Below, piece after piece: positions 7,434 to 50,000 of a DNA stretch of 64,000 nucleotides (within the stretch, counting starts at the first letter, position 1; the number at the start of each line of letters is the position of its first letter). The notes under the pieces were generated by a model. That model did no database searches. It saw only the letters and a list, made by a program, of their open reading frames with translations, and had not been told where the DNA came from. This DNA is from Thermoplasmatota archaeon (lineage in GTDB: Archaea > Thermoplasmatota > Penumbrarchaeia > Penumbrarchaeales > Penumbrarchaeaceae), in contig JBLIRG010000002.1 in assembly GCA_049472195.1 (NCBI GenBank), positions 5,184-69,183 of the forward strand, read 5' to 3'. The position numbers were made by a program, and so were the translations under genes.

Positions 7434-10400
7434 CTACAGCTGTTTCTTCGTTCCGCAGAGCGGGCACTCGACCTGGGCTGCTCCCGGAGGTACTTCGACG
7501 GACGAACCGCAGAGATCGCACAGGATTGTCGTACCAGCTGATTCGGCATTCCCCGGGAGGTTCGGGGTTGCGGCCAGGTCCTCCGGTTTCGGTATCTTAC
7601 CGGGAACGGATCCTGCCGGAGCCGGTGCTTTTGCGGGAGCCGGAGCGGGCGCGGGGGCCGGTTCGGGCTGGACCGGTTTCGCCGGTTCCTCAGTTTCTTC
7701 AGGCTCGGTCTTTTCCCTCTTCTTCTCTTTCTCGACCCTTCCCCGGGGGACAACCTGCTGGGCCGATACGGGAGGCAGCGAGAGACCCATTTCCTTGACC
7801 GAGGGCAGAAGCTCCGGTTCAATTCCGGTAAGCGCCTCGTACCTCTGCACCATGCTTGCTTCCCTGGTCACATTCCTTGTAACCCTGTTCTTCTCCAAGG
7901 TCGACCTCTTCTTGAGCACGATCATCACCGCAACGATGAGTATCAGTATGGCAAGGACAACTATCCAGACCATGAACCCGAAGTAGGTGGAATATCCCGT
8001 TTCGTCCTCATCATCGATGATGAGCGGATTCAGTGGGTCCGCATCGAGATAATCGTTCATGCCGTCCTGATCCGTGTCGGCGATCTTCGGATTCGTTCCA
8101 AGAGAGAGCTCCTCTTGATCCGTCAGTTCATCTCCGTCGTCGTCAAGGTCCTCTCCATCCGGCAGACCGTCCCCGTCGGTGTCTATCTCGCTCGGGTGTA
8201 TCTTCACGTAGAAGGATATCGAGTCCGTGATGGTGAACCAGCCGTCCGTGACATAGAGGGTGATCACGTGCACGCCCTGTCCTAGGCTACTTGCCTCCAC
8301 CTCGAAATCGGCCTCTTCGCTCAGTATCGTCTTGTTCGCGAGAACCCACTTGAACTGGAGATTATCCAGATCAGGATCGATGGAATCAGATCCCTCGAAC
8401 GAGATCTTCTGCTGTGTGTCGTACACCTCGTGCATCTCGGGTGCGGATATCGAGGCCAACGGGGGATTGTTGACTTCCTTGTATACTATGTTGATCGGGA
8501 AGTCGTCGGAGACGACGAAACCGTTTCCGGCAATGTCCTTTACCCTCCATCTGACATAGTTGGTGGATCCGGGTTCGAACAGAAGTTCAGTCGATGATGC
8601 CAGGATGGTATCTGAATCATCCGTGAGACCCGCAGATATCCAGCCGCCGTAGTTGGATATGCCGTCTCGGGATACGGAATACTGTATGGTCGATGCGTCG
8701 ACTCCCGAGAGGTCCAGTCCCTGATCCTCGATGATTATGGTGGCGGTGATCCTGCTGTCCTCCTGGGGCTCCGGATCGGGAGTCGGATCCGAGAATGTGG
8801 GTGCCTGAATATCCACCCATGCATTGGCAGGATTCCGGCTGATCGCTTCCTTCTCGAAATCCGGCCGGCTCTCCTCGGCTTTCTCCCTCGCCATGTTGTC
8901 GGTGAGGTTTACCGTGTCCCTGTAGTGTATATACAGATCCTCGACCTTCTGATCCACATCGATGACCTTCGTGGTCCCGCGGTTTCCCGCCTCGTCGGCT
9001 ACCGACCACCATATGAAGTTCTCGGTTCCCTCAGAAAGCTGGACGGGAACCGATAAGGTGTAAACGTAGTTTTCACCTCTGTCAAGTGACAGGATCGTAT
9101 ACAGCGCCCTGACGCCGTCGTTCTCCCACATCTCCTCGGTAGGTTCGCCGTTCATGTTGTCGGTTACCAGATATTTCAAGGTGGATAGGTCCAGCATCGG
9201 GCTGTTATCGCCGACGACCAGATCGCTTATGGAAACCCTGAGCTCCACCTCCTTGGAGTTGAACCATATGTTACCTGTATAGGAGGGATAGTGATTGAAC
9301 AGTGTCAGGTCCTCCCTGTCGATAACGATGGACTTGATACCCCTCCTTCCGGGATTTCCTGCCTCGTCAATGCCCCATATCTGGATGGTATAGACTCCGC
9401 TCTCCCCGAGGGTCAGTTCCGTGAACCTGTCCTCGGTGTCGCCGGTTACCATGAAGGAGCCGGGGCCCCTGACCTGGTATTTGTAACCGATGACGCCTAC
9501 CTGGGTGTCGAAGGCAGGATCCCAGGAGATCCATACCTGGTTGTCGTTGTCCCACCTGCCCTCGGGATCATCGATGGAATCGGCGTGGAACTTCAGGTTC
9601 TGTGGCGCAAACGGTCCATCGAAATCGAGGCTGACGTAGAATCCGGGAATATTGGATACGGACGTGGCGTGCAGCTCGTACTCGGGATAGAGTATCTGTT
9701 CCACCCACAGCCGGAATATGCCCGAATCGACATTTGTCGGTATTCTGATATCTATCTCCAATCCGGCGCTGGATCTGTTCTCGAACACCCTGAGGTAGTT
9801 GTCCTTGACCCTCACGAAGAACTTGTCGTTTCCGGGAGATACGTCCGTTTCCTCGTATACCGCTCTAAGGCCTGTTATCCTCAGAGGCTCACCGCCGGAT
9901 AGGACAGCTCCTCTCTCAAGCTGGCTGTCTCCAAGCATAACCTTCATGTCGATATTATCGAACGTCAGGTCCTTCTCGACCCGAAGCATGTCCTCCCTCG
10001 TCTCCGTCTTCAAGAAGCGCCCCATAACGATGTTGAAGATCACATCGAATGGGTCCTGTGTCAGGAAATTCCTGTTGATACGGAAAGACAGGTTCAGTTC
10101 GGCATAGTGATAACCCGATGTTGTGAAGTCCGAATGTTCCGGGACCACCTCAAGGCCGTTCTCGTAACTGTCGATAATGTAATAGGTATCGTTCTGGGGC
10201 GAATAGCCGAATATGTAGCTGAGACCGGACAACTGACCCTTGAGCTTGAATTCTATGATTATTTCGGATGTCTGGTACACGGTCCATGAATTCGTGAAGT
10301 TCGTGTAGAAGGTGTATATTCCGCTTCCGATCTTGTTCGTGTCATTTCTGCCCTTTCCTCCGGCCTCGGCGCAGAGGATATTCCCCCCCTCGCCGTCTCC

Positions 10401-12188
10401 GTTGGAGATATCGAACGAAAGGACCTCCGAACTGGATGGCTGGGTCAGGAACAGATATGCCGCTCCCCGGTAATATTGGCTGGATTCGTAAGGATATCCG
10501 TAGGCGCCGACAAGTATATCGGCCACCCCGTCGTTGTTTATGTCGCCTGATCCGAAATTATCGTAGGCGTAATAGCCCAGATAATTATAGGTATAATAAC
10601 CCTGAACCGTCCAGCTCATATCGCTCCACGAATAACTGCTTCCCCATTGAGAAGCACTCATTCCATAGAACAGTCCGACTGTTCCCGCATAGTTCTGGTT
10701 CCTTCCGTTTGGTACATTATACGCACCCAGCAGTATGTCGTCAATTCCGTCACCGTCGAAATCGTCGATGTGGGATTGGCACATGTACGAACTGCTTCTG
10801 GGTCCTTTGATCTTGGCAGTGGAAATGCTGTTCAGATTGCAGTAATATCCGCCGTAGGGATATGAATTGTGAAATGTGTCCTTGTACTCCGAAACATCTG
10901 ACTTCCCCCAGATGATATTTGCCGTCCCTGTATAGGAATCGGAAGATGCCCTGTCCATGATTACAAGATCATCGAAACCGTCGCCGTTGAGATCCCCCAT
11001 GGAAGGATTGTAACCGGTATAGGCGGATGATTCGCGCTTGGTGAACATCATGTAATCTCCCTGGCGGGCCAGCATGTCATAGTGCCCTCCCCACTGCATC
11101 CATTCCGATCTCGTTCTTCCCTCGATCAGGTAGGTGGCTCCTGCGTAGGTATACCGCGAGGATGTTGTGTAGTACAGGTAGGTATAGTAACCCGCACCTA
11201 TGACAAGGTCCGTTCTTCCGTCTCCGTTGAAATCCCCGGAATCGAAGGCGTCTCCGTTTCCGTATCCCATTCTGGTGTACATGTAACCGCTGTTGCCGCA
11301 CGGGGCCCATGCTTTGATCCTGAGGTAGCCGTCACCGACGGGATCCTTGTTATTGCAGTTGATGGATCCTCCGGTGGCCTTCCATTCATTCTGGGTCCTC
11401 CCCCAGAAAACAAATGATAGTCCGGTCCAGTTGTACCTTACCCGCCAGCTGAGACCGCCCCAGTTTATATTCACGTAATACGGATATGAGTATTGCTGAC
11501 ACCAATAAGGGGCGGTTACCAGCAGATCACCTTTTCCGTCATCATCGATGTCCTCGATTCCCACATTGTAACCAAAGTAAGCATATCCTCCTCCGTACGC
11601 TCCGCGTTCACCAAGCAATTTGACATCGGGTGTCGTGTAGGATGCGCTGGTCCATTCCTCCCTTCCGAAATACAGATATGCCTCCCCGATGTAGCTGTTT
11701 GCATAATAGCTTCCGATGAGAATATCATCGATCCCGTCGCCGTCCACATCTCCCACCGCGACTGTTCCACCGGCATACCTGGAGCCGGTAGGTTTCAACG
11801 TGACATCGGCGTCCTTCTCGTCAAGGTTGGATCCGGTATTGGTCATGCCGAAGTATATCCTGACCTCTCCGCTGTAGCTCGAAGCGCCCCTGGCGCCGAC
11901 GATTATATCATTGTAACCGTCGCCGTTGACGTCCCCGATCTCGCACGCGGATCCTGTATAATCGTAATTTGTTGTGGAGGTGAACATCTGATCAGGTTCA
12001 TCCCCGTTCCACAAATTGACCGTGCCGGTCAATCGACCGTTGTCGTTGTTCAAAGCAACTTGTTCATCATTCGAAATCTCGTCCTCCTCGGAACTAACGT
12101 TCAATGTTGCCAATCCCGATATCATCAGAATGACAACGACAAGTCCCGCAAGGATGCCGGATAACGTGTAACGTAACCCTGGTTTCAA
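7434..12188 (-). CDS. Integrin-alpha-like surface receptor, paralog 1: 7 FG-GAP repeats, Ig/Fn3 stalk, TSP3-like repeats, TM, Pro-rich tail and Zn ribbon
   Basis: Seven DxDxDG blades (GDVNGDG, GDVDGDG, EDIDDDG, GDFNGDG, GDLNGDG, DDFDGDG, GDINNDG). DTDGDGLPDGEDLDDDGD repeat and TM FMVWIVVLAILILIVAVMIV. Ends with CDLCG..ECPLCG. TTG start with GGAGGTGA SD at 12193-12200. Confidence 0.88.
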   Translation of the reverse strand: MKPGLRYTLSGILAGLVVVILMISGLATLNVSSEEDEISNDEQVALNNDNGRLTGTVNLWNGDEPDQMFTSTTNYDYTGSACEIGDVNGDGYNDIIVGARGASSYSGEVRIYFGMTNTGSNLDEKDADVTLKPTGSRYAGGTVAVGDVDGDGIDDILIGSYYANSYIGEAYLYFGREEWTSASYTTPDVKLLGERGAYGGGYAYFGYNVGIEDIDDDGKGDLLVTAPYWCQQYSYPYYVNINWGGLSWRVRYNWTGLSFVFWGRTQNEWKATGGSINCNNKDPVGDGYLRIKAWAPCGNSGYMYTRMGYGNGDAFDSGDFNGDGRTDLVIGAGYYTYLYYTTSSRYTYAGATYLIEGRTRSEWMQWGGHYDMLARQGDYMMFTKRESSAYTGYNPSMGDLNGDGFDDLVIMDRASSDSYTGTANIIWGKSDVSEYKDTFHNSYPYGGYYCNLNSISTAKIKGPRSSSYMCQSHIDDFDGDGIDDILLGAYNVPNGRNQNYAGTVGLFYGMSASQWGSSYSWSDMSWTVQGYYTYNYLGYYAYDNFGSGDINNDGVADILVGAYGYPYESSQYYRGAAYLFLTQPSSSEVLSFDISNGDGEGGNILCAEAGGKGRNDTNKIGSGIYTFYTNFTNSWTVYQTSEIIIEFKLKGQLSGLSYIFGYSPQNDTYYIIDSYENGLEVVPEHSDFTTSGYHYAELNLSFRINRNFLTQDPFDVIFNIVMGRFLKTETREDMLRVEKDLTFDNIDMKVMLGDSQLERGAVLSGGEPLRITGLRAVYEETDVSPGNDKFFVRVKDNYLRVFENRSSAGLEIDIRIPTNVDSGIFRLWVEQILYPEYELHATSVSNIPGFYVSLDFDGPFAPQNLKFHADSIDDPEGRWDNDNQVWISWDPAFDTQVGVIGYKYQVRGPGSFMVTGDTEDRFTELTLGESGVYTIQIWGIDEAGNPGRRGIKSIVIDREDLTLFNHYPSYTGNIWFNSKEVELRVSISDLVVGDNSPMLDLSTLKYLVTDNMNGEPTEEMWENDGVRALYTILSLDRGENYVYTLSVPVQLSEGTENFIWWSVADEAGNRGTTKVIDVDQKVEDLYIHYRDTVNLTDNMAREKAEESRPDFEKEAISRNPANAWVDIQAPTFSDPTPDPEPQEDSRITATIIIEDQGLDLSGVDASTIQYSVSRDGISNYGGWISAGLTDDSDTILASSTELLFEPGSTNYVRWRVKDIAGNGFVVSDDFPINIVYKEVNNPPLASISAPEMHEVYDTQQKISFEGSDSIDPDLDNLQFKWVLANKTILSEEADFEVEASSLGQGVHVITLYVTDGWFTITDSISFYVKIHPSEIDTDGDGLPDGEDLDDDGDELTDQEELSLGTNPKIADTDQDGMNDYLDADPLNPLIIDDEDETGYSTYFGFMVWIVVLAILILIVAVMIVLKKRSTLEKNRVTRNVTREASMVQRYEALTGIEPELLPSVKEMGLSLPPVSAQQVVPRGRVEKEKKREKTEPEETEEPAKPVQPEPAPAPAPAPAKAPAPAGSVPGKIPKPEDLAATPNLPGNAESAGTTILCDLCGSSVEVPPGAAQVECPLCGTKKQL

Positions 12189-12254
12189 CTATTCACCTCC
12201 ATTCGGATTCTGAATTCAAAAAGAAAGCGCCTTACTCTCTTTCAATAAAAATCT

Positions 12255-12310
12255 AAGTATAATGGTATATATAAGTTATGTCGCAAATTATTCTTATTAT
12301 ATATAATTTT
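12255..12310 (-). promoter_or_regulatory. AT-rich putative archaeal promoter (TATA-like TTATATATA) upstream of paralog 1
   Basis: TTATATATA-like boxes on the minus strand within the AT-rich intergenic region. Confidence 0.4.
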
Positions 12311-12326
12311 GTCAAATTTCAACTTT

Positions 12327-12785
12327 TTACATAAGAGAGAGGATGTCGGTTTTGAATTTTATGATCCTATGCTCGCATCGAATAATGTCCGCATGCCCCT
12401 CCACGCCGAGCAGGAGCCAGTAAGCATCATCCCCGAAATCGTATATGGTGCGTCTGAAATCCTGATATACGAAAAAATTCAGATCCCCCTCGTTGAACAC
12501 GCTCTCGTCTGTAACGTTCGCCCGGTGGAAGAACGGGTTCAATCTGTATCGGAGTTCCTCCTGGTCTTCCCTGGACATGTCCACTGTCCTGAAGAATTCC
12601 TCGTTCATGTTGTGCTGGTAAAGCCTGATAAGATTTGCATAGAATGCCCCGGTGACGTAGTTCACGGCATCAACTACCAGGGGGCCGTAGTGATGTGTCG
12701 ATGATCTAATCTTCCGTTCCGTCATATCGATCAATCTGCACAGGTTGTCGTAAAACTCGTTTGAGGATGATTCATCCACTGCCAT
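12327..12785 (-). CDS. Hypothetical protein, 152 aa, between the two tandem FG-GAP genes
   Basis: ATG preceded by GGGTGGAG, with genome-like codon usage. No family recognised. Confidence 0.7.
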   Translation of the reverse strand: MAVDESSSNEFYDNLCRLIDMTERKIRSSTHHYGPLVVDAVNYVTGAFYANLIRLYQHNMNEEFFRTVDMSREDQEELRYRLNPFFHRANVTDESVFNEGDLNFFVYQDFRRTIYDFGDDAYWLLLGVEGHADIIRCEHRIIKFKTDILSLM

Positions 12786-12890
12786 TTCTCCACCCTGATC
12801 GATCGAAAGGCCACCGTCGGGAAGTTGAATGGAAATAACGGTAGTTAAGCTCTTTTATCATCGCTGTAACCATTACATTATATGCAAAAT

Positions 12891-12924
12891 AAAAAAAAAG
12901 GCGCTGGAAGCGTCTTCCAGCGCC
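12891..12924 (-). terminator. Perfect 11-bp hairpin plus U9 terminator after FG-GAP paralog 2
   Basis: ggcgctggaag (12900-12910), loop cgt, cttccagcgcc (12914-12924). A9 at 12891-12899 gives the U-tract on the minus strand. Confidence 0.8.
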
Positions 12925-12940
12925 GGATGCAATTCTTTCC

Positions 12941-15900
12941 TCACAGGTTCTTCTTCTCACCGCAGAGCGGGCACTCTACCTGGGATACGCCCGGCAGAAC
13001 CTCAATGGAGGATCCGCAGAGGTCGCATGTGGTGGTGGAGGCTCCCGTGTCAGCTGCACCGGAAGAACCGGGAAGGTTCGGCGTCGCAGTGAGGTCCTCG
13101 GGTTTCGGTACCTGACCGGGGACTTTTCCCGCCGGGGCGGGCGCCCTCCCGGGAGCGGGTGCCGGTTTGGGTGCCGGAGCGGGTTTGGGCACTGTCGGGG
13201 ACGGCTCAGGCTCCGCGGTTTTTACAGGTTCCTCTTCCTTCTTGGGTTCCTTGATGTCATGAAGCTTCTTTGCTTTACCCCGTGGTAGGACCTGTTGAGC
13301 GGCGATCGGAGGCAGGGATACTCCCATGTCCTTTACGGAGGGAAGGAGCTCGGCTTCGATGCCGGTGAGCGCTTCATACCTCTGGACGACCTCCGATTCC
13401 CTGGCGACGGATCTCGTGATCCTATTCTTCTCGACCGTGGACCTCTTCTTGAGAACCACCATCACAGCGACCAGAAGTATCAGGATTGCCAGGACAACCA
13501 CCCAGATCATGAAGGAATAGTAGGTGGAATACCCTTCATCCTTCTCCTTCTCGAAGACCAGGGGATTGAGCGGTTCGGGATCGAGATAGTCATCAATACC
13601 GTCCTGATCCGTGTCCTTTAGTTTCGGATTGGTTCCCATGGCGAGCTCCTCGAGATCAGACAATCTGTCGTTGTCATCATCGAGATCCTCGCCATCCGGC
13701 AGGCCGTCCCCGTCGGTATCGACCTCGTCCGGATGGATCTTCACGTAAAGCGATACCGAGTCTGTGATCGTGAACCATCCGTCGGTAACATACAGGGTGA
13801 TGACATGGACGCCCTCTCCGAGCCTGGCGGCCGGTATCTCGAAATCGGCCTTCTCGCTGAGGATCGTCTTGTTCGCCAGGACCCACTTGAACTGCAGATT
13901 ATCCAGGTCCGGATCGGTGGAATCCGATCCTTCGAAGGATATGGTCTGCTTAGTGTCGAACACATCCTGCATTTCGGGTGAGGATATCACTGCTATCGGG
14001 GGATTGTTCAGCGGAATGAACTCGATTATTATCGGATAGTCGTCGGAGACAACGAATCCGTTTCCGGCAACATCCTTTGCCCTCCACCTGATATAATTGG
14101 TGGAACCGGGTTCGAACAGAAGAACCGTGGTCGAGGCAAGGACCTGATCGGCATCGTCGCTCAATCCGGCGGAGATCCAGCCTCCGTAATTGGAAATTCC
14201 GTCCCGCGATATTGAGTACTGTATCGTCGATACATCGACCCCGGAGAGATCCACTCCCTTATCCCGGATGATCACCGTTGCGGTGATCCTGTTGGTTTCC
14301 TGGGGTTCCGGGTCCGGTGTGGGATCGGAGAACATCGGGGCCTGAATATCGACCCAGGCGTTGGCAGGATTCTCACTCATCGCTTTCTTTTCCAGGGTGG
14401 CCCTGCTCTCCTCGGCCTTCTCCCTTGCCATGTTATCCGTGAGGTTCATGGTGTCCCTGTAATATACGTAGAGATCCTCGACCTCGGCATCAACGTCCAG
14501 TATCCGTGTGATCCCCTCGTTTCCGGCCTCGTCCTTCACTGACCACCAGATGTAGTTCTCCTTTCCTTCCTTCAGCTGAACCGGGGCCGATATGGTGTAT
14601 ATGTATCTCTCCCCGCGGTCGATCGACATGAGCGTATACTGAGCTTTGACCCCGTCCGCTTCCCACATCTCCTCGGTTGGTTCACCGGTCATCTGATCCG
14701 TCACGAGGTATCTCAGGGTCGAGAGGTCGAGCATCGGGCCGTTGTCACCGACCATAAGATCGCTTATCGAAGCCCTTAGGTCGACCTCCTTGGAGTTGAA
14801 CCACATATCACCCATGTATGTGGGATAGTGGTTGACGATGGAGAGATCCTCATGGTCGATCACGATGGATTTGATGGCCCTGATTCCAGGATTGTTCGCC
14901 TCGTCCATACCCCAGATCTGGATGGTGTAGACACCGCTGCCACCGAGGGTGAGTTCTGTGAATCGGTCAACGGTATCACCCGTCACGAGGAAGGAGCCGG
15001 GACCCCTGAGCTGGTATTTGTACCCGATCACATCCACCTGGGTATCGAAGGCAGGATCCCAGGAGATCCAGACCTGGTTGTCGTTATCCCATCTTCCCTC
15101 GGGATCGTCGATGGAATCGGCGTGGAACTTCAGGTTCTGGGGTGCTGACGGTCCTTCGAAATCCATGGTCACGTAGAAGCCTGGGACCGCTCCTTTTTCC
15201 TCTGCGTAAACCCCGTATTCGGGAGATATCATGATATTCACCCAGAACCGAAGGGTTCCCGAATCGACGTTGGTCGGAAGTATCATATTGATATCCATGC
15301 CCGCGGAGGAGTGGTTCTCGAAGACCCTCATGTAGTTATCGGTCACCCTGATGTAGTATTTGTCGTTGGACGGAGATACCTCCGTGTCCTCGTACACCAC
15401 CCTGAGTCCGGAGATCACCAGAGGATCTCCACCGGGTATGAAATCCCCTCTATTCACGGTTCTTCCTCCCTGTGTTACGGTCATGTCTATGTTGTTGAAA
15501 GTGATGTCCTTTTCCACCCTGAGCATTTCCTCTTCTACGTGGTAAACAACATCCCTGGACCGCACTATTCCGAACTTGACGTCGAAGGGATCCTGGGTCG
15601 GGAAGTTCCTGTTGATCCTGATCGAGATATTAATCTCCGCATCAAAATAGCCGTGTATCGTATAGTTGCATTTATCCTGTACCAGTTCTATGGCGTCGGC
15701 GAAATTATCTTTTATGTAGAAGGTATCGTTGATGGGATTGTATCCCATGCTGTAGGTTATTCCGGTCCATCCCCCTTTCAGAACGAACTCGAGAACGATC
15801 TCGTTTGCTTCCTTCACGGTCCACGAATCCGTATAATTCCCCCAGAACGTGTAGACGCCGTCGCCTATGGGATCCGCGCCTCCCACGCCGCCTGCTTCGG

Positions 15901-17671
15901 CGGTGAGGATGTTATTCTCCTCCCCGTCTCCGTCCTTCAGCTCGAATCCCTTGATCTCGAGGGCGGGAGGTTCTGTCAGGAACATGTAGACAGCACCGCA
16001 GTATGAAGTTGTCCCATAGGACCTGCCCTGTGCAGTAAGGACGATATCGGCTATGCTGTCATCGTTGAAATCCCCGCTGGACATGGACTGCAGGTAATAA
16101 TCACCAAGGTAACTGTATCGAGTCTCCCCCTGGACGGTCCAGTCGGCATCAGTCCATTTCAGATCCGATTGCCAATTGGCCTGTCCGTAGAACAGCCCAA
16201 CCCTTCCAGCATAGGTGTCGCTGTTATCATTGGGCATTCTGGACGGTGCAACGAGGAGATCTCCGTAACCGTCCCCGTCGAAGTCGTCGATCCAGTTGTG
16301 GGCCATGTAGCCACTGCTGGAGGTTCCGGAGATGGTCACATCCGTTACGTCTTTGATGTCGTTGTAATATCCGCCCGCGGGATAGCTGTCCCAGAATGTC
16401 GAGGTAAGGCTCGAGGTATCCGATCTTCCCCAAATGATGTAGCTCTGTCCCTCGTAATTTCCCGGCATCCGGTAAGAGCTGATGACGAGATCGTCATATC
16501 CGTCCCCGTTCAGATCTCCCAGTCTGGGATTGAATCCGGAGTAGGTGGAGCTCTCTCTCCTTGTGAAGAGCATGTAATCGCCGTTTCTGGCCATCATGTC
16601 GTAATGACCGCCCCACTGCATCCACTCCGATCTGGATCTTCCTGGAACTAGCCATGTCGCTCCGGTGTAGGAATACGATGAATAGGTAGAATAGTAAACA
16701 TAGCAGTAATAACCGGTCCCAAAGAGGATATCATTATAACCGTCACCGTCAAAATCACCGGAATGTGTGCTCTGGCCCCCGTAATATCCGAGTCTAGCGT
16801 ATCTGTAGGAACCGCCGGGCATCCAGCCCTTGATCCTTACGTACTGGTCCCCCGTGTAATCCTTGTTGTCGCAGTTTATGGTCCCGCCGATCGCGGTCCA
16901 TTCCGTTCTGGACCTACCCCAGAATATGAATGCTAGACCCGTGTAATTGTAATAGATATAGTTAGTGGTCCCTTTGAAATATTCGTTTCCGTTGACATAT
17001 TCATACCAGTAGGGCTCGGTTGCGATTATATCATCGTATCCGTCGTTATCCAGATCGTCCACCCAGACGTTGTCGCCGAAATACGATGAGGAGGACTGAC
17101 CGGTCTCACCGATGAATTTCAGATCGGGCGCCGTGTATGATTTTCCTTTGACCCAGTCCGTTCTTCCGTAGAACACGAAGGCTTCACCCTTGTAGCTGGA
17201 TCCGCCGTAGTTGCCCAGAGCGATATCGTCGATACCGTCGCCGTCCACGTCCCCGATGCCTATGGTGTCTCCAAGTCCGACGCCGCCGCTTGGTTTCAAG
17301 GTGACGTCGGCATCCTTGTATGACAGTGATCCTCCTGCCGTTATCATGCCGAAGTACACGTAGACCTCGTTGATCCCGTCGGCTCCCGTGACCATATCGT
17401 CGTATCCGTCCCCGTTCACGTCACCAACCGCAATTCCGGCGCCCATCCAGGCGCTTGATGTCGTGTGGTACATCATCTGGTCGGCGCTGCTCTCCCAGAG
17501 CTTCACATCTCCGGAAAGCCTGTTGGTTACGGGAAGCGGCTGTTCGTCGCCCGATCCGCCCTCGGTGACCGGTACGAACTCGATCACCGTCAGGCTGCTC
17601 AGAAGGAATAATGCCGCTATGAGAAACGGAATCATTCCCCGCTTTAAGGTTGTCTTGGATAAGCTTGTCAT
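12941..17671 (-). CDS. Integrin-alpha-like surface receptor, paralog 2 (same architecture as 7434-12188)
   Basis: Seven FG-GAP blades, a stalk colinear with paralog 1, TM FMIWVVVLAILILLVAVMVV, RYEALTGI and CDLCG..ECPLCG. ATG 17671 has a GGGGTGA SD. Confidence 0.88.
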   Translation of the reverse strand: MTSLSKTTLKRGMIPFLIAALFLLSSLTVIEFVPVTEGGSGDEQPLPVTNRLSGDVKLWESSADQMMYHTTSSAWMGAGIAVGDVNGDGYDDMVTGADGINEVYVYFGMITAGGSLSYKDADVTLKPSGGVGLGDTIGIGDVDGDGIDDIALGNYGGSSYKGEAFVFYGRTDWVKGKSYTAPDLKFIGETGQSSSSYFGDNVWVDDLDNDGYDDIIATEPYWYEYVNGNEYFKGTTNYIYYNYTGLAFIFWGRSRTEWTAIGGTINCDNKDYTGDQYVRIKGWMPGGSYRYARLGYYGGQSTHSGDFDGDGYNDILFGTGYYCYVYYSTYSSYSYTGATWLVPGRSRSEWMQWGGHYDMMARNGDYMLFTRRESSTYSGFNPRLGDLNGDGYDDLVISSYRMPGNYEGQSYIIWGRSDTSSLTSTFWDSYPAGGYYNDIKDVTDVTISGTSSSGYMAHNWIDDFDGDGYGDLLVAPSRMPNDNSDTYAGRVGLFYGQANWQSDLKWTDADWTVQGETRYSYLGDYYLQSMSSGDFNDDSIADIVLTAQGRSYGTTSYCGAVYMFLTEPPALEIKGFELKDGDGEENNILTAEAGGVGGADPIGDGVYTFWGNYTDSWTVKEANEIVLEFVLKGGWTGITYSMGYNPINDTFYIKDNFADAIELVQDKCNYTIHGYFDAEINISIRINRNFPTQDPFDVKFGIVRSRDVVYHVEEEMLRVEKDITFNNIDMTVTQGGRTVNRGDFIPGGDPLVISGLRVVYEDTEVSPSNDKYYIRVTDNYMRVFENHSSAGMDINMILPTNVDSGTLRFWVNIMISPEYGVYAEEKGAVPGFYVTMDFEGPSAPQNLKFHADSIDDPEGRWDNDNQVWISWDPAFDTQVDVIGYKYQLRGPGSFLVTGDTVDRFTELTLGGSGVYTIQIWGMDEANNPGIRAIKSIVIDHEDLSIVNHYPTYMGDMWFNSKEVDLRASISDLMVGDNGPMLDLSTLRYLVTDQMTGEPTEEMWEADGVKAQYTLMSIDRGERYIYTISAPVQLKEGKENYIWWSVKDEAGNEGITRILDVDAEVEDLYVYYRDTMNLTDNMAREKAEESRATLEKKAMSENPANAWVDIQAPMFSDPTPDPEPQETNRITATVIIRDKGVDLSGVDVSTIQYSISRDGISNYGGWISAGLSDDADQVLASTTVLLFEPGSTNYIRWRAKDVAGNGFVVSDDYPIIIEFIPLNNPPIAVISSPEMQDVFDTKQTISFEGSDSTDPDLDNLQFKWVLANKTILSEKADFEIPAARLGEGVHVITLYVTDGWFTITDSVSLYVKIHPDEVDTDGDGLPDGEDLDDDNDRLSDLEELAMGTNPKLKDTDQDGIDDYLDPEPLNPLVFEKEKDEGYSTYYSFMIWVVVLAILILLVAVMVVLKKRSTVEKNRITRSVARESEVVQRYEALTGIEAELLPSVKDMGVSLPPIAAQQVLPRGKAKKLHDIKEPKKEEEPVKTAEPEPSPTVPKPAPAPKPAPAPGRAPAPAGKVPGQVPKPEDLTATPNLPGSSGAADTGASTTTCDLCGSSIEVLPGVSQVECPLCGEKKNL

Positions 17672-17858
17672 TATGTTCACCCCTATATACTCTATGCTGC
17701 TCCATTTGAGCATCAAAATTTTACAAATACAGGCCCCATTTTATAATATATAAAAGGCACAGTTGGATTTTTTCATTTTATATAAAGTTTACATGTTTAT
17801 ATGGCTGTTGTGACCGATTTCATCCAATTTGAATGGATGAATTCATCCTCAATTTTTA

Positions 17859-19397
17859 CTAGAAACCTCCCACCTCCCACGGGGGATAGGCGGAGGTCTG
17901 AAGGAAACCGAAGAGGAATACGGATATCCATGTAAGCGGGGGATCGGAGGCGAGTGCAAAGGGAAATATCCAGAGAAGATACCACGGATGAAACTGGGGC
18001 GAGCAGATGAGAAGGAGGATCAGCACGGAAGCGGAGACCGTGGGGATCAAAATGACGGGAATATGACGCTTCAACATTTTTGTGCCTTCTTGAATCCCGT
18101 TCTCCCCTCCCTCGGAATCGAAGCTGACGAAGAGATATACGGATAGACCTATGAACAGGATCGAGCGCCCCAGTGAGAACATTCCCGATGTCCATTCGTA
18201 GATGGAATGGGATCCGGCCTTGATTATGGATATGCCGTAGATCAGCATGATTATGATGAGAAGCGAGGTCAGAACGGCGATCAGCGAAAGGTCTTTCCTT
18301 TTTATCTTTCCCGTTGCCCCACGGTAGTAGAGATACAGCGCTCCCGCCGCCAGCGCAAGGTTTAGAATTACCGCAGCAGCCGAGGTTGGGAATCCGGCAA
18401 TATCAAGGATCAGCTCCATTAGGAACCTCACCGAGAGCCCGCTGTACCATCCTGCCGTCTGATATACGAAATAATCCAGAAGAAGTACGGGATCCCTGAT
18501 AAGGATCGGGAGGGATGAAATAAGGAAAACGGATACGAACCCGGCGAGAAGGATTCCCCTGTCCTTCCATTTCCTGAAACCGAGGAGAAAGACGGGTAGA
18601 AGGAAGATCGGATACAGCTTGAGGGAGAATCCCGCCCCCAGAAAGAGGCCCGATATGATCGGCTTTCCCCTGATAAGGAAGAGGTAGGAAAGGAGAACCG
18701 AGATCACCACCACGGGATCGAAATGCCCCGCAAGCCCCGACTCCAGTATCCCGACCGGCCACAGGGAATATGCCAAGGCACCGATCCCCCAACCGATCGG
18801 GGGCAATCCGCCATCAGACGATCCGTCAGTTACACGGTTGAGGTATCCACTATCCATGCCGGCTCTGTATATGCCAAGCATTACCACCGGTATCGCTGAA
18901 TTTACCAGGACGAAGATTATTCTGAAGGACGCCTCGGTCGGTCCGAATACGACCGAGATGAGTCCGACCATCCAGATGTAGAGCGGCGGCTTGTTTACGG
19001 GGAAATCCTGATAGGGGAATTTCCCGTCGATCATGTTCTCCCCCCGCATATGCAGCCACATTATGTCCTGGGAGAGTGCCGGTTCCCTGAGAAGAAAGGT
19101 CAGCTGAAGAAACAGCGCGATACCGAAAAGCAGGAGCGAGGAACGAAGCGGTCCGAGGGACATAAGCTTCCCGGGATATGACGACCTGGCGAAGAAAAAG
19201 ACCGCCGCGGCGAATGATATGTACCATACCGCGTTTGCTGACTGAAAACGGAGCCATGAATCTCCCCCCGCCGCCATAAAAACATAGGACAGCATGTATA
19301 TGGTGAGCGATACGAAGAAAAGCGCCTCGCTTGACAACCGGTTCCTTCCCGTCCCGGCTGTCTTGATCAACCGCCGTTCGGCGATATCCATGGCCAT
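17859..19397 (-). CDS. GT-C fold polytopic glycosyltransferase (GT87/DUF2029-like)
   Basis: Many TM helices; FPYQDFPVNKPP, HFDPV, SLKLYP and PQFHPWYLLW motifs. Confidence 0.7.
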   Translation of the reverse strand: MAMDIAERRLIKTAGTGRNRLSSEALFFVSLTIYMLSYVFMAAGGDSWLRFQSANAVWYISFAAAVFFFARSSYPGKLMSLGPLRSSLLLFGIALFLQLTFLLREPALSQDIMWLHMRGENMIDGKFPYQDFPVNKPPLYIWMVGLISVVFGPTEASFRIIFVLVNSAIPVVMLGIYRAGMDSGYLNRVTDGSSDGGLPPIGWGIGALAYSLWPVGILESGLAGHFDPVVVISVLLSYLFLIRGKPIISGLFLGAGFSLKLYPIFLLPVFLLGFRKWKDRGILLAGFVSVFLISSLPILIRDPVLLLDYFVYQTAGWYSGLSVRFLMELILDIAGFPTSAAAVILNLALAAGALYLYYRGATGKIKRKDLSLIAVLTSLLIIIMLIYGISIIKAGSHSIYEWTSGMFSLGRSILFIGLSVYLFVSFDSEGGENGIQEGTKMLKRHIPVILIPTVSASVLILLLICSPQFHPWYLLWIFPFALASDPPLTWISVFLFGFLQTSAYPPWEVGGF

Positions 19398-19456
19398 ATG
19401 AAGGAATTACCTCATTTAAACATAACCGCGGTAATCATGACGGGATCATTAAAGGA

Positions 19457-20416
19457 TCATTTGCCCTTTCCACTTATTATCCTGTAGTGGGATCTCGTTA
19501 TCCTTTCGGTTCCCACAGCAGAGAGCAGAAGCTCGGCTGTCAAACCGACGAACAGGGTTGTTATGCCGAAGAGATACAAAACGGCTCCGAGAACGGTTCC
19601 AGGATTGAGAAAGTTGGATCCGTCGGCTATCAGATAATAGAGCGAGAATCCCATTGGAATTGATCCCAAGATCATGGAGAATACGAACCCTCTTGCGAAG
19701 AAATGAAGGGGCGATCGGCTGTATTTCGTGAGGAATGTTATGGTTACAAGGTCGATGAAACCCTTGAAGAGCCTCTCGATCCCGTATTTGGATTTCCCCG
19801 TTGTTCTCTTGTGGTGTTTGACCTTTATCTCGCCGACCCGAAACCCCCTCCAGTGGGCTTTCACGGGAAGATATCTGTGGAACTCCCCGTAGACGTCGAG
19901 GGATCTGACAACCTCCCTGCGGTATGCCTTGAACCCGCAGTTGTTGTCGTGGATCTTCACACCCGTCATCTTCCGGATCAACCAGTTGAAGAATTTCGAA
20001 GGTATCTTCTTCCCCATGGGGTCCAGTCTCTGGTATTTCCAGCCGGAGACGAGGTCATATCCCTCATCCAGCTTCTTGAGGAACCTTCCGATCTCCCTAG
20101 GATCGTCCTGCAGGTCCCCGTCCATGGTTATGACGATATCCCCTTTGACATTCTCGAATCCGGCCCTGAGAGCGTTTGCCTTTCCGAAATTCCGGTAGAA
20201 AGTTATTACGGATACCCTGCCGTCCTTTCGTATCAGGCCCTGGATCTTCTTCAGGGTCGAATCCGTTGATCCGTCGTCCACGAAGATGATCTCGTAGGAT
20301 CTGCCGAGCCTGTCGAGCTCCTCCTTGAGCTTGGAATAGAGCGCCTTGACGCTTCCCTCCTCGTTGTAGACCGGAATCACTATGCTGAGGTCCTTCCCTG
20401 ACAAATGATCAACCAC
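19457..20416 (-). CDS. GT2 polyprenol-phosphate glycosyltransferase (DPM synthase/ArnC-like)
   Basis: SIVIPVYNEE, FVDDGSTD, RNFGKANAL, MDGDLQDDP and DNNCGFKAYRR motifs, plus two C-terminal TMs. Confidence 0.9.
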   Translation of the reverse strand: MVDHLSGKDLSIVIPVYNEEGSVKALYSKLKEELDRLGRSYEIIFVDDGSTDSTLKKIQGLIRKDGRVSVITFYRNFGKANALRAGFENVKGDIVITMDGDLQDDPREIGRFLKKLDEGYDLVSGWKYQRLDPMGKKIPSKFFNWLIRKMTGVKIHDNNCGFKAYRREVVRSLDVYGEFHRYLPVKAHWRGFRVGEIKVKHHKRTTGKSKYGIERLFKGFIDLVTITFLTKYSRSPLHFFARGFVFSMILGSIPMGFSLYYLIADGSNFLNPGTVLGAVLYLFGITTLFVGLTAELLLSAVGTERITRSHYRIISGKGK

Positions 20417-20525
20417 CGGATCGATTATGAACTGACATTTGGACCAAAGAATGAAGGTTTTTAAACTTTACCTGACGGATCCCCCGATTGCGGACGTTAT
20501 CCCGGCAGTATGGACCAGACAGCGG

Positions 20526-21590
20526 TCAATTTCTGCTCCTCCTCCGAAGGTAGAACAGGGAGATCAAACCCAGGGGTATCGAGAGCCAGAGCGAGGTTGC
20601 CACCATTGCGATCGATGCCGATGTGGATATGCCTTCATCATCCGTCAGGAGGTATAGTACTGATGATGATCCCAGCAGGTTGCCTGCCCCGATCGGGAGG
20701 ATGAACCCGAGTATGTTGGCTATCGCGATTCCGGCGACCGCTCCGGGGAAAGCGACGTTCGCGTCAACCGGAAGAGCCAGTATGACAAGATACAGCCGGA
20801 CCGCCTCGTTGAACCAGATCGCTATGGTCATGATAATGATGCCCGCAAAGGACATCCTGTCCCTGGTCATCCTCGATATCGAGTCATGGAACTTCTTTGC
20901 CGACTCATCGAGTTTGCCGACCAGCTTTGACGAGAATTTCAGCGCTCTTCCTCTCAGGAAGCGATCCGTGAACCCCCCCAAGATCCTGATGGAAGCGGAC
21001 ATGAGCCTTCGGTTCGATATCAGGACAATCGCCAGAATGACAAGTATCCCCACGATGATGATCCCGGCGATCATGCCGATCGTATCATCGAACCCGATCT
21101 TCCATATCAGATAGACGGCCCCAAGTATTGCGAATGTCAGTATTGTCAGGATATCCAGGGATTTCTCCGAGAAGATCGATGCGGCGCCCACGGAGATCCG
21201 TGTATCCGTATGTTCCCTCAGAAGGTAGGCCCTGACCGGCTCGCCTCCGATCTTGCCCGGCGTGGAATTGTTAAGGGCGAGGGAAGCAAGGAATATGGGA
21301 AGTGTGATCCAGCCGGTCCTTTTCCGGGTCATGCCCCTTATGATGGCATTCCATCTGAGAGCCTTCATGGCGGTATTCAGAAAATACAATCCGAGGATGA
21401 GCAGAAGCAGGCCGATATCGATCCCACTGATCGTATCGAGGGTCCTTCTAACGTTGGCGTTGATAACGAGCATGATGATGAGGACGAGGGCAAGACCTAG
21501 ATAGAGAAGGTCCTTCCATCCCATACTTATCTTCAATCCGCCCTTTTTTCCCTCGGCCAACGGCATGAATTTTTCTCCGGAATGATCCAT
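20526..21590 (-). CDS. Flippase-like membrane protein (UPF0104 / LPG-synthase TM family)
   Basis: LRW, NNSTPGKIGGEPVRAYLL and SEKSLD motifs; about 8 TMs. Confidence 0.85.
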   Translation of the reverse strand: MDHSGEKFMPLAEGKKGGLKISMGWKDLLYLGLALVLIIMLVINANVRRTLDTISGIDIGLLLLILGLYFLNTAMKALRWNAIIRGMTRKRTGWITLPIFLASLALNNSTPGKIGGEPVRAYLLREHTDTRISVGAASIFSEKSLDILTILTFAILGAVYLIWKIGFDDTIGMIAGIIIVGILVILAIVLISNRRLMSASIRILGGFTDRFLRGRALKFSSKLVGKLDESAKKFHDSISRMTRDRMSFAGIIIMTIAIWFNEAVRLYLVILALPVDANVAFPGAVAGIAIANILGFILPIGAGNLLGSSSVLYLLTDDEGISTSASIAMVATSLWLSIPLGLISLFYLRRRSRN

Positions 21591-46737: not shown

Positions 46738-47042
46738 ATCATCGGAGATTTTATTGAAATAAGAAGTCTCATAATTAGAAGGTGGATGGAGTTTTCATCC
46801 GGTTCATCGAAGATAAAACAAGTTTTCCTCAGAGATGATGTTATCCTTGTCCAGTTCAATAATTTGATGGACCCCCGGACCGAATTTTTCTTTCAAAGGA
46901 CTTTTTTAAAAAGGCGAGGTATAAATACATGGAAAAAACCATGCCAATACCCATTAATAAAGCTCGAGGACTGGAATCAAATATTGGTAATATTGTGGAT
47001 TAACCGATCAATGGACCGGTTAGCATGTCTGGGGTGTTCAAA

Positions 47043-50000
47043 ATGGCGAAATCAATGAGTTTTCAAAAGAAGGTAAAATTTGTAATGGTGCCGGTTCTGA
47101 TGGCGATCATTCTTGCCGTTCCCGCATTTCAGGCGGGATCGGGGATTGATGAGGATCCCGTTCCGACCCGGGATGATGATGAGGATAACGAGATGTTCAC
47201 CGGATCCGTTGACCTGGGCGCGATGTCCATGGAGCAGTACATCAGCGGTGAGGAGAAATACGACAACTTCGGGTATTCCATGGCCAAGGGAGATATCAAC
47301 GGCGATGATCTCGAGGATATCATTATCGGTGCTCCCGGTTTTAACGGGTCCAGGGGCGGCGTTTTCGTGTTTTACGGCGGATCCAAGGGCAGGGAGATGT
47401 CCTACGAGGATGCCGATGTCGTCATCGACCATCATGAAGATTACACCTATTTCGGCCTGAATGTCGAGGTGGGCGACGTGGACGGCGACGGGAACCTGGA
47501 CATTCTTGCCTCGGGTTACACGGACGATCAGCTCGGCCCGGGACCTCTTGTCGAGTATCCCAAGGTATTTCTGTTCCTTGGAAAGAACGGGTGGGCCCAC
47601 AACATCTCCACGGCGGAAGCCGATACGGTGTATATAGGCAGCGATCCGACAACCTTTTTCGGCTACAAGATCGGGCTCGGCGACGTCACCAGCGACGGCT
47701 ACGACGATGTGGTGGTCACCGAGATAGAGGCGGGAGCCGTTGCCGGATCGATGGGCAGCGGTATTGATTACGATACGAATATCGCCCTTGATGCCACGGC
47801 ATCACACAGCGGAGGGGGATCAGGAGTCTGGGGCCCCGATCGTCTGAACAACGGTGATTACACGGGTGTTTACAACGACTGCTGGACTTCAGGAGGCGGA
47901 TGGGTTGAATTGGTATGGGAGGACGAGGTCCAGGTCGCTGCGATGACCGTACTTTACACCAGGTACCGCACTCTCTCAGCATCCTATTGCCTGGATAGAT
48001 GTGATGTCAAATGGTGGGACGGATCCGCCTGGCAGCTGGATCACCAATACCGCACCAGTGCGGAAACCGGAGGTGTAGCCGGTACCGTCCATGACAACTA
48101 TATCAATATGACCGAACCCAGGAAGACCACCAGGGTGAGGCTGGAAAATATGAATTCCGGGTCAAACATCATGATCCAGGAGTGGCTCGTGTTCGGGGGC
48201 GGCGGATCGAAAGCATATGTTGGATCACCCAACGGCACGATGTATATATTCGAAGGCGGTCCGATCCTTCAGAGCTCATACAATGTATCTCTGGGCGCCA
48301 ATCCCGGCGGATACGATCACTTCATCAACAATACCGCCAACAACTCCGGTTTCGCAACCACGGATCTGGATCTCGGCGACATCAACGGCGACGGCTACGA
48401 GGATATCCTGATCGGCTCCGGCGGCATTCAGTACGAGGGTATCGAGTCCGGTTCGGTCCAGGTGATCCTCGGAGGAGCGAACCTTCCCAAGATGATAGAT
48501 CTGTACACCTATTCCCATCTTAACATAACGTCCTTCCCCGGATACAGGTTGTCGTATGTGACCCATGCCGACATCACCGGAGACGGGATCCAGGACCTGA
48601 TCGTTGTAGCCCCCGGCGCTTTCTTCGACAAGACTGGCGGCATATTCGCGTATAAAGGTAAGAAGGTCATGCCCACGGGCCAGATGACCATTCTCAATTA
48701 CGATTTCATGATCCGGGGCCCCCGTGAGGATTGGGAGTTCAATGTGGAGGGAGCTGGTGATCTCGACGGTGACGGTAAGGAGGATCTCTGGATCCGATCC
48801 GGCAACGGCGAGAAGACCGGCGGCGGCGGAATCTATTACCTTCTGTATATGAAGGAGGTTGCGAAGCTTCCGGATCCGACCGTGTACAATATGAAGTTCG
48901 AGACGCCTACGTTCAAGGTTGTTGCTCCCAAGGGCAAGAGCAGTTTCGGATCGTTTTTGCGCAATGGTCTCATGACCCTTGATTTCAACAACGACGATCT
49001 TGAGGAGATCGTGCTGTGTGATTACGACGGCAGTTTCCAGGGTAAACCCACCGAGTCCGGTCTTGTGTCGGTTTATTATCCCCAGGTGAGCGAGATATTG
49101 GTAGAGAAGTTCGAGCTGACCGATCCGGACGGCATCGATGAATACATTGTTGGAGCGGAGAAGGTCTATCATTTCCAGGGTTCCGTTTTGAATACCTGGT
49201 CTTACGGTGATATAAAATCGATGGACCTCAAGTTCCACATGCACGGGACCGGTTACGACGGCCAGTCTTTGGACATATCCTGGAATATGGAGATGATGAA
49301 TCTTGTGGAGCGCAATGATCTTGAGGATTTCATCAACATCGAATCCAGCAGTGTTGTTCAGACGAGCAATTACGGTTTGGATTTCTATCTTAATTTGAGT
49401 TTCAATTCCCATTATCCTCTTGAGGATGCGCTTGATGTCGGTTTGTATGTTGACAGCCACAAGGGAGATCTTTTGATGTCGAAGGTTCTTCCTGGTCTTT
49501 TCCGTGTGGAGGTTGACGTTGATTTCTTCGGTGAGCTTACGGTGAGTGCCGAGAAGAACGGCGTTCTTGCCCGCGGTTCCTATGTTCAGCCCAATGAGAA
49601 GATCGTTGTGACGGGTATTCGTGCTGTTTATGAGGGTACACTGGTGTCTCCTCCGAATACATATTTCTCGATAAAGATGGAGGACAATCTGGGCAACATC
49701 TTCCTGAATCAGAGTTCATCCGGTCTGGATATCTACTTCACGTATCGAACCCAGCCTATGGCGGGCCGGGAGGAGGTGAAGATCTCTATTGTTGATCTCA
49801 AGCAGGGTGTTGATGACATGTCTGGTCAGCCTGATTTCTATTATATTGTCGACACCGATCTTCCCCCTGCTCCGGAGGGTTTGACCGTTCATGCTGATTC
49901 TGATGTTGATCCTTTGATGGGTTACGATAACGATCCCGATGTTTGGGTGTTGTGGAATCCGACCCAGGATGCGACTTCCGAGATAATCGGTTACATGTAT

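Follow-up and report, generated by a model that had tools for sequence, protein, structure and literature searches.

A family of FG-GAP propeller proteins with a conserved zinc-ribbon tail and an integrin-alpha-like layout in Thermoplasmatota archaea

The stretch of DNA analyzed here (hereafter the window) comprises 64,000 nucleotides of contig JBLIRG010000002.1 from a Thermoplasmatota archaeon and encodes three large surface proteins, which we refer to as A, B, and C: A and B form a tandem pair, and C is a more distant paralog (Table 1). All three are intact open reading frames (ORFs) and are open at the loci that a preliminary description, made from the sequence without database searches, had assigned to proteins of this architecture. 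The coordinates given there for A are exact, whereas those given as the end of B (17671) and the start of C (47043) correspond to the first in-frame ATG and the second ATG, respectively, inside longer ORFs; for B, the ATG at 17671 is a more likely start than the ORF end at 17716. A and B share 61% identity over their full length, and A and C share 27% identity across ~1300 aa (E = 1e-94). Hydropathy profiles of each protein reveal a hydrophobic signal at the N-terminus and, close to the C-terminus, a single additional hydrophobic helix, and A, B, and C are type-I membrane proteins. Their common layout is composed of a signal sequence, an FG-GAP propeller, six beta-sandwich domains, TSP3-like calcium-binding repeats, a transmembrane helix, and a tail of ~155 aa.

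Table 1. Locations of the genes, domains, and related features discussed in the text. Positions refer to the window unless a contig or locus is named; pLDDT, predicted local distance difference test score.
Feature	Coordinates	Strand	Size or residues	Description	Basis
Gene A (P0001)	7434..12188	-	1584 aa	A-type protein with FG-GAP propeller, stalk, transmembrane helix, and zinc-ribbon tail	ORF, Pfam, AlphaFold2
A, propeller	10443..12026	-	residues ~55-582	seven FG-GAP blades	regular expression, AlphaFold2, Foldseek, PDB profile search
A, two beta-sandwich domains just below propeller	9624..10442	-	residues ~583-855		AlphaFold2 (strands 552-820, pLDDT ~90)
A, membrane-proximal stalk	8193..9623	-	residues 856-1332	Fn3-like, Ig-like, helical insert, Ig-like, PKD	AlphaFold2, Foldseek
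A, TSP3-like repeats	8004..8192	-	residues 1333-1395	acidic calcium-binding repeats (DTDGDGLPD...), membrane-adjacent	regular expression, Pfam
A, transmembrane helix	7896..7985	-	residues 1402-1431		hydropathy 3.55; AlphaFold2 (unbroken helix 1402-1454)
A, tail	7437..7895	-	residues 1432-1584	motif block, Pro/Ala-rich disordered linker, terminal zinc ribbon (7437-7523)	
Gene B (P0002)	12941..17716	-	1591 aa	tandem paralog of A, architecture as in A	ORF, alignment, tree
Gene C (P0003)	47025..51860	+	1611 aa	C-type paralog: propeller with degenerate calcium loops, stalk, transmembrane helix, zinc ribbon	ORF, Pfam, tree
C, insert	47740-48220	+	residues ~240-400 (~160 aa)	between blades 3 and 4	
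P0106	12327-12785	-	152 aa	ORF between B and A; no Pfam match	
GC-rich hairpin and T9	12900..12924	-		just past the B stop codon; 11-bp stem, 8 GC pairs, TTTTTTTTT	
Glycosylation-related genes	17859..21590	-		GT87-like membrane glycosyltransferase, GT2, LPG_synthase_TM-like protein; upstream of B	Pfam
Zinc-finger protein	24343-24951	+		CPxCG-related; adjoins P0104	PF19769, E = 3e-44
P0104	24986..28177	-	1063 aa	~600-aa stalk, PKD, TSP3, transmembrane helix; non-propeller head	BLASTP, Pfam
Stalk-sharing loci L033-L047	e.g., L035:9146-13135, L038:9275-13093		1270-1470 aa	stalk-sharing proteins of other genomes	
Type-I proteins with domain tails	contigs C26:28958-31072, C38:1-3846, C57:54812-59500, C36:16808-19279, C71:10447-15114	-, +, -, +, -			

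A DxDxDG calcium loop is present in each blade of the A propeller (residues 86, 147, 213, 319, 399, 476, and 549). The strict pattern Dx[DN]x[DN]G is found seven, six, and three times in the heads of A, B, and C, respectively, in regular expression scans; the seventh loop of B is degenerate (GDFNDDSIADI), and C has four additional loops that we judged by eye to be degenerate. The earlier statement that each protein has exactly seven DxDxDG blades is therefore strictly correct for A and has to be relaxed for B and C. Pfam detects seven FG-GAP stretches in A (E = 5e-40), six in B (E = 1e-28), and four in C (E = 5e-22), and both PF01839 and PF13517 exceed their cut-offs in all three proteins, which places them in the FG-GAP/VCBS superfamily. 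For structure prediction with AlphaFold2, A was split at a domain boundary and the halves were modeled separately, using an alignment of 22-24 family members from the window and the loci of relatives. The model of residues 36-858 (pLDDT, 86.8; predicted template modeling score, 0.82; propeller mostly at pLDDT 85-95) contains seven groups of four strands, one per calcium loop, followed by two beta-sandwich domains, and fits a head of seven four-stranded blades, as read from the grouping of strands and not from coordinate geometry. In a Foldseek search of the PDB with this model, all of the 50 best matches are integrin alpha chains (alphaV, alpha5, alphaIIb, and alpha4; E = 2e-23 to 6e-17). The template modeling score against integrin headpieces is ~0.5 (target-normalized) and the root-mean-square deviation is 13-27 Å, indicating that essentially the propeller alone superposes on integrins. 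A profile search of the PDB with the A head gave a match to integrin alphaV (E = 9e-24), aligned across the blades of integrin propellers that bear calcium loops. The head of C contains an insert that had been described as discoidin-like; this assignment is not borne out, as the only Pfam match is to DUF7402 (E = 0.09) and a search of PDB sequences returned no significant match. Judging from protein lengths, the insert is limited to C and the two longest C-type orthologs (L014 and L018, ~1620-1640 aa) and is lacking in those of ~1450 aa.

The stalk of A is modeled as six beta-sandwich domains (residues ~583-1332), namely two unnamed domains, an Fn3-like domain, two Ig-like domains, and a PKD domain, consistent with the Ig/Fn3-like stalk proposed in the preliminary description; both the seven-bladed propeller and the Ig-like legs that were to be sought with AlphaFold and Foldseek are thus present in the model of A. 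A Pfam search with the piece that contains the two unnamed domains (residues ~583-855) identified no family. The two Ig-like domains are separated by a helical insert of ~40 aa (about residues 1078-1118), and the second bears an NY[IV]RWRxKDxAGNG motif. Foldseek matches of the C-terminal half (residues 850-1584; pLDDT, 77.7) are generic strings of Ig and Fn3 domains, including the leptin receptor, thick-filament proteins, GhpA, SiiE, and the surface-layer (S-layer) proteins Sap and HPI, and none of the top 50 matches of this half, which includes the last four stalk domains, is an integrin. The corresponding PDB profile search recovered the PKD domain of ColH (E = 7e-8), thrombospondin-2 (E = 2e-3), and the ribbon of LysW (E = 0.0095). 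Pfam matches to PKD in the stalk are weak, and NCBIfam and Pfam name the stalk and tail by sub-threshold matches only (OmpL47-type barrel, CglD, PKD, TSP3_bac, and zf-LSD1). Immediately ahead of the membrane, A, B, and C contain two to four TSP3-like DxDxDG units in a regular expression search; support for these repeats is weak yet consistent (TSP3_bac, E = 0.014, in addition to the thrombospondin-2 match). The single transmembrane helix that had been noted is recovered in A both by hydropathy and as part of a long helix in the AlphaFold2 model, and it runs on into a basic juxtamembrane stretch, KKRSTLEKNR, from which we infer that the tail is cytoplasmic.

The tail of A combines a motif block, RYE.LTG[IV]..LLP.VKEMG.SLPP, with a terminal zinc ribbon, CxLCGS..V..G...ECPLCG, and the tail of C has the motif RYEVLTGIPTNDLPAIEA..ALPGV in addition to a zinc ribbon. 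Across the genome, the RYE.LTG motif is found in A, B, and C only. Alignment of 23 tails from both paralog types reveals a shared organization: a basic start is followed by R[YF]E.LTG[IV]...LP.[VI][KE].....[SA]LP[PG]V, then by a variable linker that is rich in Pro and Ala or in acidic residues and contains further small conserved islands, and finally by C.LCGS..-V--G----ECPLCG---L. The invariant positions of this alignment are R54, T59, G60, L66, P67, the final glycine, and the four cysteines of the ribbon, the latter with a break at one position in locus L016. The two conserved blocks match the stalk in conservation, and the linker between them is less conserved. In the AlphaFold2 model of the A tail, ~90 disordered residues precede four short strands at the Cys-rich end, and the Pfam matches to this end fall below their cut-offs (Zn_ribbon_FGT1_2, E = 2.7e-4, 20.9 bits against a cut-off of 27; zf-LSD1, E = 0.017, 15.5 bits against a cut-off of 20.2). 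The conserved cytoplasmic tail of the preliminary description thus holds across 23 sequences of both paralog types, and its conservation speaks for an interaction inside the cell.

Scanning GTDB species genomes for the family pattern yielded 64 loci, all of which are in metagenome-assembled genomes (MAGs) of Thermoplasmatota with the exception of one (L008). This only non-archaeal match to the family, on a 2907-bp contig (JBDLJP010000288.1) of a Candidatus Fermentibacteria bin, shares 47% identity with A and probably reflects incorrect binning. With a hidden Markov model of the tail, we detected the full module in all 24 sampled genomes of the GTDB family of the window, which represent seven genera, and in the two sister-family genomes; among the other 375 of the 401 Thermoplasmatota genomes there were no full-length matches and four with weak matches to the zinc ribbon only. 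A comparison with 1.84 billion representative proteins gave ~17 that match the greater part of the tail (E ≤ 1e-22); 12 of them do so over its full length (E ≤ 1e-30), and all other hits are to the ribbon only. Based on these sequence searches, the family appears to be confined to one order of uncultured Thermoplasmatota. Among the relatives are "Thermoplasmatales archaeon ex4484_6" and an isolate labeled EX4484-6, and an ORF matching the ex4484_6 locus is present in the GTDB family of the window; the host lineage is probably the class EX4484-6. Candidatus Penumbrarchaeia is the name given to that class, which has been enriched on protein in anoxic sediment and for which a 90% enrichment exists (PMC12220078). 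A full-text literature search found no description of the architecture, in agreement with the preliminary description, whose author knew of none, and the terms FG-GAP, surface protein, S-layer, and zinc ribbon are all absent from a detailed paper on the class.

In a maximum likelihood tree, A-type and C-type proteins form separate clades (100/100 each), and a MAG of the sister family is represented in both clades, indicating that the duplication that gave rise to the two types is old; A-type and C-type genes are found together in the same MAGs. A and B of the window group as sisters (100/100), which indicates that a recent, lineage-specific duplication event gave rise to the tandem pair. At the amino-acid level, the two proteins are 53% identical across the propeller and the pair of domains beneath it; the corresponding values are 70-80% for the remaining stalk, the transmembrane helix and motif block, and the ribbon (75-80% for stalk, transmembrane helix, and ribbon). 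For every domain of this pair, the ratio of nonsynonymous to synonymous substitution rates (dN/dS) falls at 0.08-0.2, a rough estimate with synonymous sites near saturation, and every domain appears to be under purifying selection. The synonymous divergence (dS) is ~1.1 in the membrane-proximal stalk (8193-9623 compared with 13700-15150) and 2-4, hence saturated, in the head; gene conversion between the two copies, or else a mosaic origin, may account for the lower value in the stalk.

The stalk also occurs in proteins that lack a propeller. P0104, also encoded in the window, is 25% identical to C over 603 aa (BLASTP, E = 3e-32), has Pfam matches to PKD and TSP3_bac, and has a head resembling that of L035, a stalk-sharing relative with a NIDO domain (Pfam, 4e-8); its short Pro-rich tail contains ALPPAG and no zinc ribbon. 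In more distant Thermoplasmatota MAGs, 12 proteins without FG-GAP repeats, one of which has the NIDO head, share stalk residues ~625-1316. These proteins have Pro-rich tails of ~260 aa, all 12 end in CxxC..CxxC, and 10 contain L.[RL][ML]ALPP[AG]P. The stalk-sharing proteins thus resemble A, B, and C in having a homologous stalk of ~600-700 aa, PKD, TSP3, a transmembrane helix, an [SA]LPP motif, and (with the exception of P0104) the ribbon; they differ in their NIDO-like or unknown heads, in the absence of the RYE.LTG block from all of them, and, in the other MAGs, in the greater length of the tail. A, B, and C themselves carry the stalk blocks NY[IV]RWRxKD and [VI]DxS[TS][IV]QYS, PKD, TSP3, a transmembrane helix, [SA]LP[PG], and a terminal CxxC..CxxC. 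From these shared sequence features, the propeller proteins appear to be one head variant of a wider Thermoplasmatota chassis composed of stalk, transmembrane helix, LPP motif, and ribbon.

The 2.8-Mb genome as a whole has at least 25 large ORFs with FG-GAP repeats. Its assembly (2.79 Mb in 111 contigs) contains 404 stop-to-stop ORFs of at least 600 aa, and by a crude hydropathy screen ~230 of these have a C-terminal transmembrane helix, some of them likely false positives; giant membrane-anchored proteins take up an unusually large share of this genome. A type-I-like arrangement with a tail of at least 60 aa is found in 94 ORFs, and ~17 of these tails have CxxC..CxxC ribbons, including that of a CARDB protein in the window (2-2521). 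Given these numbers and the shared stalk, the idea of a three-member receptor family standing as an isolated system had to be abandoned. The tails of the five type-I proteins listed in the last row of Table 1 contain a J-domain (two proteins), a TIR domain, two winged helix-turn-helix (wHTH) domains, or DUF4129, all with matches that exceed Pfam cut-offs. The tail with two wHTH domains sits behind a VIT and VWA ectodomain, and this protein would be a membrane-tethered transcription factor; functional tails on surface proteins are a recurring theme in this organism. Zinc ribbons are also present at the ends of other proteins. A small multi-TM protein (C21:2961-3635, plus strand) that is conserved in many family genomes has, after a His/Pro-rich linker, the C-terminal ribbon VECPQCG..IPVG..CPYCG, which resembles that of the FG-GAP proteins, and a DnaK/Hsp70-like protein (C98:992-3268, plus strand; compare C32:15041-18211) has C-terminal CPxCG zinc ribbons that resemble those of the surface-protein tails. 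Together with the J-domain tails, the DnaK-like ribbons hint at a chaperone link to surface proteins.

The gene neighborhood of A and B includes a topoisomerase, folP, glycosyltransferases, and a peptidase M3. In relatives, the A-type gene is present in single copy at the same site, between the cluster of GT2, GT87-like, and LPG_synthase_TM genes and folP-topA, and the synteny of this trio with a single A-type gene is seen in related MAGs (L001-L004 and L011). The relatives have no tandem pair and accordingly no equivalent of the position of P0106. The hairpin and T9 run that follow B suggest that A and B are probably separate transcripts. In related MAGs, the PF19769 zinc-finger gene next to P0104 shows synteny with the cluster of surface-protein genes.

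Whether FG-GAP propellers of prokaryotes could be precursors or analogs of the integrin head has been a subject of discussion. Like the integrin alpha chains alphaV, alpha5, alphaIIb, and alpha4, A consists of an N-terminal seven-bladed FG-GAP propeller with DxDxDG loops, beta-sandwich legs, a transmembrane helix, and a tail, and the integrin-alpha-like layout that had been proposed is retained in this sense, with integrins at the top of the Foldseek matches; the similarity itself, however, is that of a generic FG-GAP propeller, and the Ig-like legs, which are generic in the model, add no specific support for integrin homology. A differs from integrin alpha chains in having calcium loops in seven of seven blades, Fn3, Ig, and PKD legs in place of thigh and calf domains, an additional TSP3 segment, and a 155-aa zinc-ribbon tail, and in occurring in one archaeal order only. 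The Integrin_alpha2 leg domain (PF08441) has no match in A, B, or C at E ≤ 0.01 in Pfam, and no GFFKR-type motif (GFF[KR]R) follows the transmembrane helix, where the sequence is VLKKRSTLEKNR.... Integrin_beta (PF00362) has no match in the 86%-complete genome, in a search in which no control genome matched either. The preliminary description had also suggested looking for a co-occurring VWA or beta-like partner. The genome has five VWA-bearing ORFs, one of which is the VIT-VWA protein with wHTH domains; none of the five has the family tail, and no such partner was found near A and B or sharing their tail. Integrin orthology was rejected on the grounds that no leg-domain family, GFFKR motif, or (in the search without a positive control) beta subunit was found and that calcium loops are present in all blades; in layout, A, B, and C resemble integrin alpha chains or other type-I adhesion receptors, and they are not integrin orthologs.

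Parallels to the head are also found among bacterial FG-GAP propellers, which bind calcium in all blades as opposed to roughly four in human alphaV (PMC3192720). Bacterial integrin-type FG-GAP/VCBS proteins (Chouhan et al. 2011, PMC3192720; Pereira and Lupas 2021, PMC8023676) resemble A in having extracellular propellers of seven repeats with calcium motifs in all blades; the bacterial examples are reported without a transmembrane helix or recognizable legs (PMC3192720), in contrast to the type-I membrane anchor, defined stalk, and conserved cytoplasmic tail of A, B, and C. SiiE, GhpA, Sap, and HPI, which are structural matches of the stalk, likewise present a distal binding module on a calcium-stabilized string of beta-sandwich domains; unlike A, they are secreted or anchored to the wall and lack a cytoplasmic module, and no sequence homology to them was detected. 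Prokaryotic FG-GAP surface proteins are a known kind, and what distinguishes the present family is the type-I receptor layout together with the conserved zinc-ribbon tail.

We lean, at slightly better than even confidence, toward the interpretation that A, B, and C are lineage-specific, calcium-dependent adhesion or receptor-like glycoproteins of the cell surface whose tail docks a cytoplasmic partner. The ectodomain would extend some 25-30 nm beyond the membrane, and the propeller would bind an external ligand, which could be a polymeric substrate, a particle, or another cell. The loops on the top face of the propeller and the two domains beneath it would have diverged rapidly (A and B are 53% identical there), and the nearly constant stalk and conserved tail blocks (70-80%) would link the head to a conserved cytoplasmic partner that recognizes the linear motif and the zinc ribbon; this connection could serve anchoring, clustering, or outside-in/inside-out coupling. 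A-type and C-type proteins may act together, given that their coexistence predates the split of the host families. Of the ligand-sensing adhesion or signaling receptor system initially proposed, the architecture and the conserved tail are supported, and signaling is conjectural and not separable from adhesion or anchoring. Several observations weigh against our interpretation. A structural envelope protein would account just as well for the presence of the genes in all host-family genomes in nearly single copy and for their synteny with genes of housekeeping and glycosylation functions. The zinc ribbon is generic in this genome, also ending a small multi-TM protein, and could be a general tag for handling or anchoring membrane proteins instead of a signaling device. 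The LPP motif is treated as homologous across lineages on the strength of a short pattern, and the AlphaFold2 models, in which the propeller is recognized by its groups of strands, rest on shallow alignments (22-24 sequences). We regard as unlikely, but worth stating, a more far-reaching scenario in which type-I receptors of eukaryotic style occur across the phylum, with interchangeable heads on a common stalk and disordered tails whose conserved [SA]LPP-type motif and terminal ribbon dock one intracellular machine (cytoskeletal, chaperone, or transcriptional), and in which the A-type and C-type proteins of Penumbrarchaeia are an integrin-like pair coupling calcium-dependent ligand binding inward.

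The strongest competitor, to which we assign perhaps one chance in four, is that these are structural envelope proteins, with A-type and C-type proteins as the core of an S-layer-like or glycocalyx coat of a probably wall-less cell, the stalk setting the thickness of the coat, the propellers forming lateral calcium-bridged contacts, and the ribbon tail organizing the inner anchor. Such a role would suit their occurrence in all host-family genomes, generally with a single gene of each type, the synteny of the A-type gene with GT2, GT87, LPG_synthase_TM, and housekeeping genes, and the protein-rich surface suggested by the ~230 large ORFs of the crude hydropathy screen. Sap and HPI are among the structural matches of the stalk, although these S-layer matches are no better than those to receptors and adhesins. 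A tail of 155 aa that combines a folded ribbon with a number of conserved linear motifs, however, exceeds what an anchor needs, and faster divergence of the head than of the stalk, along with a lineage-specific duplicate that has diverged in its head, is typical of the diversification of ligand-binding proteins. The same tail bears on the possibility that the proteins are a substrate-capture device of a heterotroph degrading polymers or proteins, in which the propeller would hold detrital polymers near surface peptidases and the tail would be functionally irrelevant: this would leave the strict conservation of the tail unexplained, and no catalytic or known carbohydrate- or protein-binding module is found in A or B by Pfam or NCBIfam. 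Although the lineage has been enriched on protein in anoxic sediment (PMC12220078) and the window and genome are rich in surface proteins that display peptidase or BNR-like heads on comparable anchors, we consider substrate capture improbable.

We give equally little credence to a true integrin-like heterodimeric signaling receptor, homologous or convergent, in which an A-type protein would pair with a C-type protein, or a propeller protein with an unrecognized beta-like partner, through ectodomains and through transmembrane and tail regions and would pass conformational signals across the membrane. The two paralog types are ancient and co-occur, the helix that spans the membrane and its juxtamembrane continuation is conserved along with the tail motifs, and wHTH, TIR, and J-domain tails elsewhere in the genome make transmembrane coupling seem common in this organism; moreover, the 50 top structural matches are integrin alpha chains, with alignments of 740-940 columns compared with an integrin propeller of ~450 residues. 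On the other side, the deviation of 13-27 Å shows superposition of the propeller only, the legs match generic Ig strings, and matches to Integrin_beta (in the search without a positive control), Integrin_alpha2, and GFFKR are lacking. All seven blades of A have calcium loops, as in bacterial propellers (PMC3192720), and FG-GAP propellers are widespread in prokaryotes and numerous in this genome. The positive evidence for a heterodimer is limited to layout and the co-occurrence of paralogs.

Relative to the bacterial examples (PMC3192720), the archaeal family has an anchor, legs, and a tail that those proteins lack, plus a strongly conserved intracellular module, and its hosts are a sediment lineage that has received very little study. 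If the tail docks a partner, as in the adhesion or receptor-like interpretation that we favor, the family would be a tractable archaeal case of transmembrane coupling in the style of adhesion receptors and would explain why many giant surface proteins of this organism end in zinc ribbons, J-domains, TIR domains, or wHTH domains. If the proteins are only an envelope scaffold, they would be candidates for the main surface proteins of Candidatus Penumbrarchaeia and a marker family for the order.

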